From: a virus
Lineage: Duplodnaviria; Heunggongvirae; Uroviricota; Caudoviricetes
Reading direction: 5' to 3' (one strand)
IMG/VR virus record: IMGVR_UViG_2684622670_000009
Coordinates: 1 to 64,000 of that record
DNA length: 64,000 bases
Of the stretch, positions 16,201-19,200 are shown one piece after another. Numbering within the stretch: position 1 is the stretch's first letter; every line of letters starts with the position of its first letter. Position numbers: made by a program.

Positions 16201-19200
16201 ATGACCAGTGAAACAGCATTGCTGTCACTTGGTCGTGGCAGCCCGGACCGACGATGAAGCATGTTTAGCTGGCCCAAATGTTGCTGGATAGTTTTTACTG
16301 CCAGACCGCGCGCCTGAAGATATAGAAGATAATCGCGAACATCTTCAGGTTCTGCGGGAAACCATTTCCGGTTATTCAACTTGCACCATGCCGCCCACGA
16401 CCGGCAAACGGACAGAAGCATTTTCCAGGTGTGCTCAGAAAACGCCTGGCGATCCCTGAACATGCCCATCAGGTTCTTGCGAACCTCATCACTCGTTGCA
16501 TCGACCGGCAATGCTGGCAAATTTTGGTGTACGGTCATTAAATTGGACATTTAACACTCAGATAATAGTTTTAAGTAAAGTGTACAGGATCGGCTCAGCC
16601 TTTACCTGTTTATGGTTTTCATCATAGAAACGCCAGCGACCGTGCGTGCGTTCTATTTTCTCTTCACCGCGATATAATGACAGTTGGTAACTATCACGCT
16701 CAAAGCCTTTTGCCCGCCAGTAACCACGGTTTTTCTCAAGCTCAAGATGAGTGGACACTTTAGCAGCTGAATATCCCATTTTTCACCTCTGATTGATTGG
16801 TAGTGCTAAGTGCGCTACGTGAAATCTGTAGGACTAACACCGCCAACTTTTCTCAGATTTTACGTAGCGCAATCTTGATCAAATGATCACTATTTGACCT
16901 GACAAGGTATTGAACTGTATGGATTTACAGGTAAATTGATCATGTTCAATAACCCTTAAGATAACTTCGTATAATGCATGCTATACGAAGTTATCAGGTC
17001 CGAAGAGGAGTTTACGTCCAGCTGCGCACAAAAATCAAGAATTATTAGAGCAATAAATTTTGAGAGAAAAATCCCACTCCACCAGCTAAAAACTGGATTG
17101 TTTTTCATAGCTGTTTGACAATTGCTCTAATAAATTATAGTTTTGCCGCCGTTACGTAATACGACTTTGGATTCACTATTTAATGTGTCTTCAGCGTTGT
17201 AGAGCGGCTCAGAAGGAAATGAGCAAACAGGGAAACCTTATACAACGGCATTACAGCTATGCATTGCTCATCTTACACACAGCGCAATGTTGTTAGATTA
17301 CCCCAGCATGGATCATGGGTGAAACAGTAGGTCAGAGCTTCAGGCTCTGTGTTGTCAATACAGTGAGGCATAATTATGGCTTTCATTCAACCAACCATCG
17401 ACGACGTTAGACATTGCTCTAACGCTTTATCTGTAGACCCTGCCGAAACCGACGCTGCCCGCGCCATTGCTGAACACTACTCAAAGATATCCAATCAGGA
17501 GTACCGCATCACCCAAGACGACCTGGATGACCTCACTGACACAATCGAATATCTCATGGCAACTAACCAGTTGGACTCACAATAAATGCACTAATAAATC
17601 TATTATTTTTGTTTGATCCCTCTATAATATAGGTCAGTAATGACCGGTTTTCTCAGCCGGGCGTTATTGACCATGTCAATTCTGGAGGAGGATCAATGAT
17701 AAATTATGTCTACGGCGAACAACTGTACCAGGAGTTCGTCAGCTTCAGGGATCTCTTTCTAAAAAAAGCTGTTGCACGCGCCCAACACGTTGATACAGCC
17801 AGCGACGGTCGTCCTGTACGCCCGGTTGTCGTTCTACCGTTCAAAGAAACTGACAGCATTCAGGCTGAAATTGATAAATGGACTTTAATGGCGCGGGAAC
17901 TGGAACAGTACCCAGACCTCAATATCCCAAAGACTATTTTATATCCAGTGCCTAACATCCTTCGCGGTGTGCGCAAGGTTACAACTTATCAGACAGAAGC
18001 TGTGAACAGCGTCAACATGACCGCTGGCCGCATTATTCATCTGATTGATAAGGACATTCGCATCCAAAAAAGCGCGGGGATCAATGAGCACAGTGCGAAA
18101 TACATAGAGAACCTGGAAGCAACAAAAGAGCTAATGAGGCAGTACCCGGAGGATGAAAAATTCCGTATGCGTGTACACGGCTTTAGCGAAACAATGCTGC
18201 GCGTCCACTACATCTCCAGTAGCCCTAACTACAATGATGGTAAATCAGTTAGTTACCATGTACCGCTGTGTGGCGTGTTTATCTGCGATGAAACTCTCCG
18301 TGATGGAATCATCATCAACGGTGAATTCGAGAAAGCAAAATTTAGCCTTTATGACTCTATAGAACCGATCATCTGCGACCGCTGGCCGCAGGCAAAAATA
18401 TATCGCCTGGCAGATATTGAAAATGTAAAAAAACAAATTGCCATCACTCGCGAAGAGAAAAAGGTTAAGTCAGCCGCATCAGTTACGCGCAGCCGTAAAA
18501 CCAAGAAGGGGCAGCCAGTAAACGACAACCCCGAAAGCGCGCAATAAATTATGCCCGGCATCAACCGGGCATTCTTCCATTATTCAGCCGCCACCGGTTT
18601 TAACAAGCCAGCATCGAGCAGTTTACGCGTCAACCACTGCTGGCCTTTACCCGTTAATTGAGGCGTCAACCGTATCTGGTAGCCATCTTCATCATCCAGC
18701 ACCACTTCTTTCACCGTGAAATACCCCGCGTTGATGTACTGCTGGAACGGCACATTTTTACGTCCACCGGACGCTATCAGGATGCCGTTCTCCCGTAACC
18801 AGGCAAACAGCGCGTTTTGCTTAAGTCCAACAACCTTTGCAAAATTTCCAATCAGGATCCCCTTGGCAACTGATACCCGGTCGGCAAAATCGACCTTAGG
18901 GGCGGCGGCCACCAGCTGCTGATTTAGCTGGTGGGCTTTCTGTTCCAGAAGTTGCTTTTGTTCAGCCAGTTCGGCAGCCAGACGCAGGGCTTCTGGAAGC
19001 GTCTGGGGGATTGTGACCGGTTGCTGTTCTTTTTGTCGGAAGTAGCTGTCTTCCAGTTTTTCAAAGAATGCCCATGCCTGATCGGTTTCGAGCATTTTAG
19101 CGTGACGGGCAGCGCCGCGTTCTGTCCAGAGAGTGAGTGAGCGGGCTTTGGGTGAGACTGGATTTTGTGAGTAGTTTAAAGCTACCCGCAAATTTTTCAG

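Follow-up and report, generated by a model that had tools for sequence, protein, structure and literature searches.

The lox site of bacteriophage P1 is used for the resolution of plasmid dimers and for the cyclisation of the terminally redundant infecting DNA. In the P1 cre/loxP record (X03453.1), the feature annotated as 'loxP recombination site' has the sequence GCATACAT on the strand that codes for cre, corresponding to ATGTATGC on the opposite strand. Engineered spacer mutants, among them the Lee and Saito series, lox511, lox2272 and lox5171, combine the loxP arms with an altered spacer, and the commonly used ones are changed at positions 2, 5 or 7. In the series of Lee and Saito, as summarised in PMC1479339, each of the 24 single substitutions was made, and strand exchange was found to require homology at positions 2-5; mutants of this kind are expected to recombine with a copy of themselves but only poorly with loxP. 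Mean recombination in vitro amounted to 30.5% for matched and to 4.6% for unmatched spacers, one pair with a single differing position attained 22%, and no mutant spacer equalled the wild type; in Cre-expressing E. coli, all 33 matched-spacer pairs studied recombined fully, the central TA not being required, and 12 of 21 unmatched pairs recombined to completion (PMC2018622). When 6000 spacers were screened as matched pairs, 84% were efficient, transitions were better tolerated, and preferences for particular bases were restricted to A4', G3 and C4, which are outer positions (PMC11260471).

The site described here lies in a 64,000-nucleotide stretch of Caudoviricetes DNA (positions 1 to 64,000 of the IMG/VR record IMGVR_UViG_2684622670_000009; referred to below as the window). 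It shares with the lox sites of P1 (X03453.1), P7 and phiW39 the arms, an asymmetric 8-bp spacer, the position, and the orientation beside immC. The segment 16961-16994 reads ATAACTTCGTATA-ATGCATGC-TATACGAAGTTAT; on the minus strand, which codes for cre, it reads ATAACTTCGTATA GCATGCAT TATACGAAGTTAT, in the same orientation relative to cre as P1 loxP. The two arms are perfect 13-bp inverted repeats whose bases are identical to those of the annotated loxP of X03453.1 (26 of 26), and the original prediction of a genuine lox site with loxP arms thus holds. The spacer departs from loxP by a single base, ATGCATGC for ATGTATGC, namely a T-to-C exchange at 16977, which is spacer position 4 (T4C) and turns the central TpA into CpA. 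Exactly this one change had been predicted, and X03453.1 proves the canonical spacer assumed there to be correct. The 6-bp exchange region, TGCATG, is fully asymmetric (none of its six bases matches the reverse complement, compared with two of six in the wild type), and the lox site consequently retains its direction. No second lox-like site was found in the 64-kb window with up to three mismatches allowed, and 100 dinucleotide-preserving shuffles yielded no lox match. In carrying loxP arms around an altered spacer, the site resembles the engineered mutants; it differs from the common ones in that the change affects position 4. Since all 24 single substitutions have been made, the T4C sequence should already exist as a tested engineered site; among the matches listed when the literature was searched for the exact ATGCATGC spacer, no title was clearly relevant, and our literature searches found no description of the natural lox polymorphism reported below. 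The features discussed in the text are compiled in the table.

Table. Coordinates of the lox site and of neighbouring genes in the 64-kb window.
Feature	Position	Strand	Remarks
Complete 34-bp lox site	16961..16994	-	arms and spacer read; flanks collinear with native lox flanks
Left 13-bp Cre-binding arm	16961..16973	.	identical to loxP arm
Spacer (8 bp), ATGCATGC; canonical ATGTATGC	16974..16981	+	direct reading against X03453.1
Variant base C (T in loxP); spacer position 4, T of central TpA	16977	+	
Right 13-bp Cre-binding arm	16982..16994	.	identical to loxP arm
cre, 343 aa	15519..16550	-	exact protein WP_059276270.1 [Escherichia albertii]
cra (Cre-associated ORF1), 73 aa	16558..16779	-	five residues differ from P1
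coi (C1 repressor inactivator), immC side of lox	17376..17585	+	
c1 immunity repressor	17696..18547	+	Pfam PF27008
parA and parB	56957-59171		

The gene order cre, cra, lox, coi and c1 is that of P1, P7 and the phage vB_EcoM-673R5, and the lox site occupies the P1-type position, in which it precedes the cra-cre operon and separates cre from the immC genes. The sequences on either side of it (CCCTTAAG and CAGGTCCG) are native P1-like flanks common to, and collinear with, those of 673R5 and of the E. albertii plasmid p06-3542. The contig BBVP01000027.1 (84,475 bp) of the E. albertii assembly GCA_001514785.1 agrees with the window at 100% identity and in its coordinates. Given the native gene order and flanks, the site is the lox native to an Escherichia albertii phage-plasmid of the P1-like type, and the allele is a new natural form of a thoroughly characterised site.

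The neighbourhood of the site exhibits several features of its own. A segment of 8 bp (TGATCAAG) that both E. coli pEC18-3 and E. albertii p06-3542 possess is missing from the window at position 16883, in a GATC-containing stretch between lox and cra whose counterpart region in X03453.1 has pR1 promoter elements. A minus-strand gene (18580-19695) situated between c1 and the terminase gene pacB encodes a 371-amino-acid antirepressor-like protein with ORF6N and ANT domains, whereas c1 directly abuts pacB in the P7 immC record. A variable region downstream of ref (about 6300-13000; L134, L135) contains a chaperone-usher fimbrial cluster of minus-strand genes (PapC usher, PapD chaperone) and a gene for a DsbA-like thioredoxin, which are accessory cargo of the P1-like plasmid. 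ParA and C1 are too widely conserved to mark the lineage. Some public records are oddly annotated: Cra is labelled 'creatininase' in NZ_CP034163.1 (68036-68257), and the name 'GST-loxP-cre recombinase fusion protein' is given to Cre in phage records.

The Cre protein of the element is identical to P1 Cre (CAA27178.1) at 340 of 343 residues and retains the active-site residues R173, K201, H289, R292, W315 and Y324 as well as I320. The expectation that it would differ from P1 Cre at a few residues is correct; the substitutions are L5M, D29G and A252S. When 76 Cre sequences were compared, A252S turned out to be a common polymorphism (34 of 76), L5M was rare, and D29G was confined to a small lineage (one of 76, plus a sister contig considered below). 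Residue D29 belongs to helix A, where Cre monomers contact one another, and D29G might alter the cooperativity of Cre. In the 6000-spacer study, I320 was the key residue tied to spacer selectivity, and an L5P substitution had no significant effect by itself (PMC11260471); none of the three substitutions affects a residue shown to set spacer selectivity.

The comparison with the lox sites of P1-like phages and plasmids that the original prediction had envisaged found the T4C allele nowhere else in a native context. In IMG/VR, 100 lox-bearing stretches with loxP arms contain 99 sites of the canonical type plus three whose spacers differ from it (ATGTTCGC, ATGAACGC, ATGTGTGT), and none has the ATGCATGC spacer. 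Among the roughly 700 lox-bearing plasmid records of PLSDB, none matches the variant over all 34 bases; 668 of 706 are exactly canonical (about 95%), 18 are one base off and 20 differ by more than one. None of 697 lox-bearing records of complete E. coli genomes matches the variant at 34 of 34 positions, and 677 match it at 33 of 34. A 54-bp lox query found no full match in the phage collection, where the best hit, 673R5, has one mismatch and a canonical spacer; in JGI metagenomes, the variant allele was not found. At the base equivalent to 16977, 106 other fetched loci have T in 105 cases, A in one and C in none. With more than 1400 lox-bearing records considered, the variant thus remains a singleton. 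Conservation is far stronger in the lox site itself than in the 20 flanking bases, which fall into divergent haplotypes (458 records with 90-95% identity over 54 bp). Rare spacer substitutions between perfect arms nevertheless occur in other P1-like plasmids, none of them being T4C: ATGTTCGC (L034), ATGAACGC (L076) and ATGTGTGT (L091) are all found in a native P1-like context, and so are the further spacers ATGTACGC (NZ_CP020522.1, 76582-76615) and ATATATGC (NZ_AP027620.1, 62635-62668). In plasmid pEC18-3, in contrast, the variation is in an arm rather than in the spacer; a right-arm variant, TATACGAAATTAT (NZ_CP060916.1; 5863-5896 of fetched locus L118), is among the natural lox alleles.

The origin of the change can be approached by comparison with the nearest relatives of the element. 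Only three contigs on record have exactly this Cre and Cra: the deposited contig, the Logan reassembly of the read set DRR017161, which matches the window without any difference over 7 kb, the variant spacer included, and a sister contig from an unrelated run (Logan ERR14205555, contig 1146). The sister is 99.35% identical to the window over 12 kb, and its lox spacer is canonical, with T at the equivalent of 16977. Because this sister combines an identical Cre and Cra with the canonical spacer, sequence comparison indicates that T4C is recent, derived and private to one strain, and that the Cre substitutions are older than the spacer change. A link between the spacer change and the Cre substitutions, at which the original prediction had hinted, is not supported in view of this sister; co-evolution of Cre and spacer was therefore rejected as an explanation, a reading further weakened by the fact that A252S is a common polymorphism. 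Two other private singletons are located near lox, at 15008 and 17111, and they indicate that the strain has undergone real private divergence; about 3.6 kb thus contain three private singletons, and that one of them should fall within the 8-bp spacer is slightly surprising (a chance of roughly 1%, estimated post hoc).

The differences between window and sister are unevenly distributed. There are seven in the segment 10783-16976, with none in 15033-16976 where cre and cra are located, and 23 in the segment 16977-18637, beginning at the lox spacer, so that the divergence jumps about 12-fold at lox. The differences on the c1 side are standing polymorphisms common to other plasmids, while the window alone has those at 16977 and 17111. 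This pattern might indicate that P1-like elements naturally cross over at lox, a reading that is only suggestive because the 12-kb comparison is mosaic elsewhere too, with other patches at 6580-8360 and 9348-9714.

We suggest that the site is, with good probability, the native lox of an E. albertii P1-like phage-plasmid in which a recent, strain-private and nearly neutral T-to-C change has occurred at spacer position 4; on the sequence evidence, T4C is best read as something other than a co-evolved switch of Cre/lox specificity. Cre would bind both arms as it does on loxP, cut the spacer one base in from either end, and then exchange the 6-bp region that is now TGCATG. Dimer resolution and cyclisation both pair two copies of the element's own site, and the spacers taking part in them would consequently be matched; self-recombination of ATGCATGC should then proceed at or near the wild-type level and leave both processes largely intact, as judged from engineered sites recombined by P1 Cre rather than by the L5M/D29G/A252S protein. 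The notion that T4C matters for dimer resolution, put forward in the original prediction, thus finds no support. Some loss of recombination efficiency is possible, since no mutant spacer equalled the wild type in vitro (PMC2018622). When the partner is a canonical loxP on another P1-like element, a reduced exchange is plausible, because position 4 is situated inside the 6-bp exchange region and within positions 2-5; this single heterology would lower recombination without abolishing it, and the exchange is probably leaky in vivo given the 22% obtained with a one-base pair and the many unmatched pairs that went to completion in cells. The behaviour predicted from the literature, good self-recombination and a reduced but leaky cross with loxP, would approach that of the lox511/lox2272 class, whose members recombine efficiently with themselves but not with loxP. 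T4C is best regarded as a point mutation close to neutrality, position 4 ranking among the least constrained of the site.

A 34-mer identical to the variant site (ATAACTTCGTATAATGCATGCTATACGAAGTTAT) is also present in two unrelated genome assemblies, those of Ca. Paracaedibacter symbiosus PRA9 (Scaffold_1; 2903-2936 of fetched locus L105) and Gemmata sp. IIL30 (scaffold00004; 5032-5065 of fetched locus L106). There, it is flanked by TCGT...TACG or GACG; one copy is located beside a run of N at a scaffold gap and the other between duplicated sequences. A lox site flanked by TCGT...TACG matches the Roche 454 Titanium paired-end loxP linker. In view of the linker-type flanks and the unrelated genomes, these two loci were rejected as natural relatives of the E. 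albertii site and are regarded as linker remnants; the remnants have the same 34-mer as the window but linker flanks, whereas the window has P1 flanks and genes. On this reading, the same T-to-C change has arisen at least twice in library preparation, sequencing or assembly. A related case is the high-GC contig IMGVR_UViG_2873012545_000001, in which three canonical lox sites with the flanks of the remnants (CGTA...ACGA or ACGT...TACG) are crowded into 205 bp (4673-4877 of fetched locus L027), an arrangement that points to library-linker contamination in a public viral contig. Lox 34-mers encountered in genome scans can hence be library-linker debris.

These remnants bear on the possibility that the true site of the E. 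albertii element is the canonical ATGTATGC and that the C at 16977 is a consensus error. Such an error would fit the singleton status of the allele, the canonical spacer of the closest sister plasmid and the recurrence of the identical 34-mer in two unrelated assemblies; furthermore, both assemblies with the E. albertii variant appear to derive from DRR017161, so that the independent support for the base most likely amounts to one read set. Nevertheless, the deposited contig and the Logan reassembly agree, and the other private substitutions nearby, at 15008 and 17111, are as expected for real divergence. Neither linker-type TCGT...TACG flanks nor a foreign context or gap is found at the window site, and linker contamination was rejected on account of its native flanks and synteny; if the strain is among the 26 drafts of PMC4700944, its library was an Illumina Nextera XT library, which involves no lox linker. 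We therefore regard a consensus error as quite unlikely. A true base might, on the other hand, have impaired the site in an element in which the Cre-lox system is dispensable or is being lost. Over their 34 bp, most PLSDB sites are identical amid divergent flanks, and this conservation of lox beyond its flanks suggests that most lox changes are selected against; the inferiority of all mutant spacers to the wild type in vitro (PMC2018622) points in the same direction. Yet cre is full-length with all catalytic residues kept, both arms are perfect, position 4 is among the least constrained for matched-pair recombination (PMC11260471, PMC2018622), and the sister plasmid shows that the module was canonical very recently, all of which makes such a decay highly unlikely.

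T4C might instead have been selected because it uncouples this lox from loxP and thereby averts Cre-mediated cointegration or marker exchange with P1-like elements that reside in, or infect, the same cell. One heterology in the exchange region does lower recombination (PMC2018622, PMC1479339), native contexts hold several further natural spacer alleles, two lox places are found in some E. coli genomes, and the jump in divergence at lox fits a natural crossover point. Against this stand the occurrence of the allele in one strain, without any spread, the leakiness in vivo expected for a single transition (PMC2018622), mosaic patches throughout the 12-kb comparison rather than at lox alone, and the lack of any sign of a second P1-like element in the host; we hold selection of this kind to be highly improbable. 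It is likewise rather unlikely, to a somewhat lesser degree, that natural spacer alleles in general form recombinational isolation barriers between P1-like phage-plasmids, or that T4C reflects a templated mutational hotspot. If the barrier reading were true, Cre-driven cointegration and marker exchange would be limited at the apparent natural crossover point. As a recurrent, sequence-templated event, T4C may arise when a primer end ATG slips onto the downstream ATG repeat and copies its C, so that ATG-T-ATG-C would become ATG-C-ATG-C; such a slip would account for the recurrence of T4C in two independent 454 linker remnants.

With the nearly neutral, strain-private change as the preferred reading, the near-invariant loxP does have rare natural spacer alleles, although the practical importance of this fact is small. 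T4C strikes the central TpA that was once thought to be essential, and yet the Cre-lox module of the E. albertii element is apparently intact. Should the site recombine with itself as expected, it would represent a natural counterpart of the engineered heterospecific lox sites, and it would provide a hint that single spacer mutations modulate Cre-mediated exchange between co-infecting P1-like elements.
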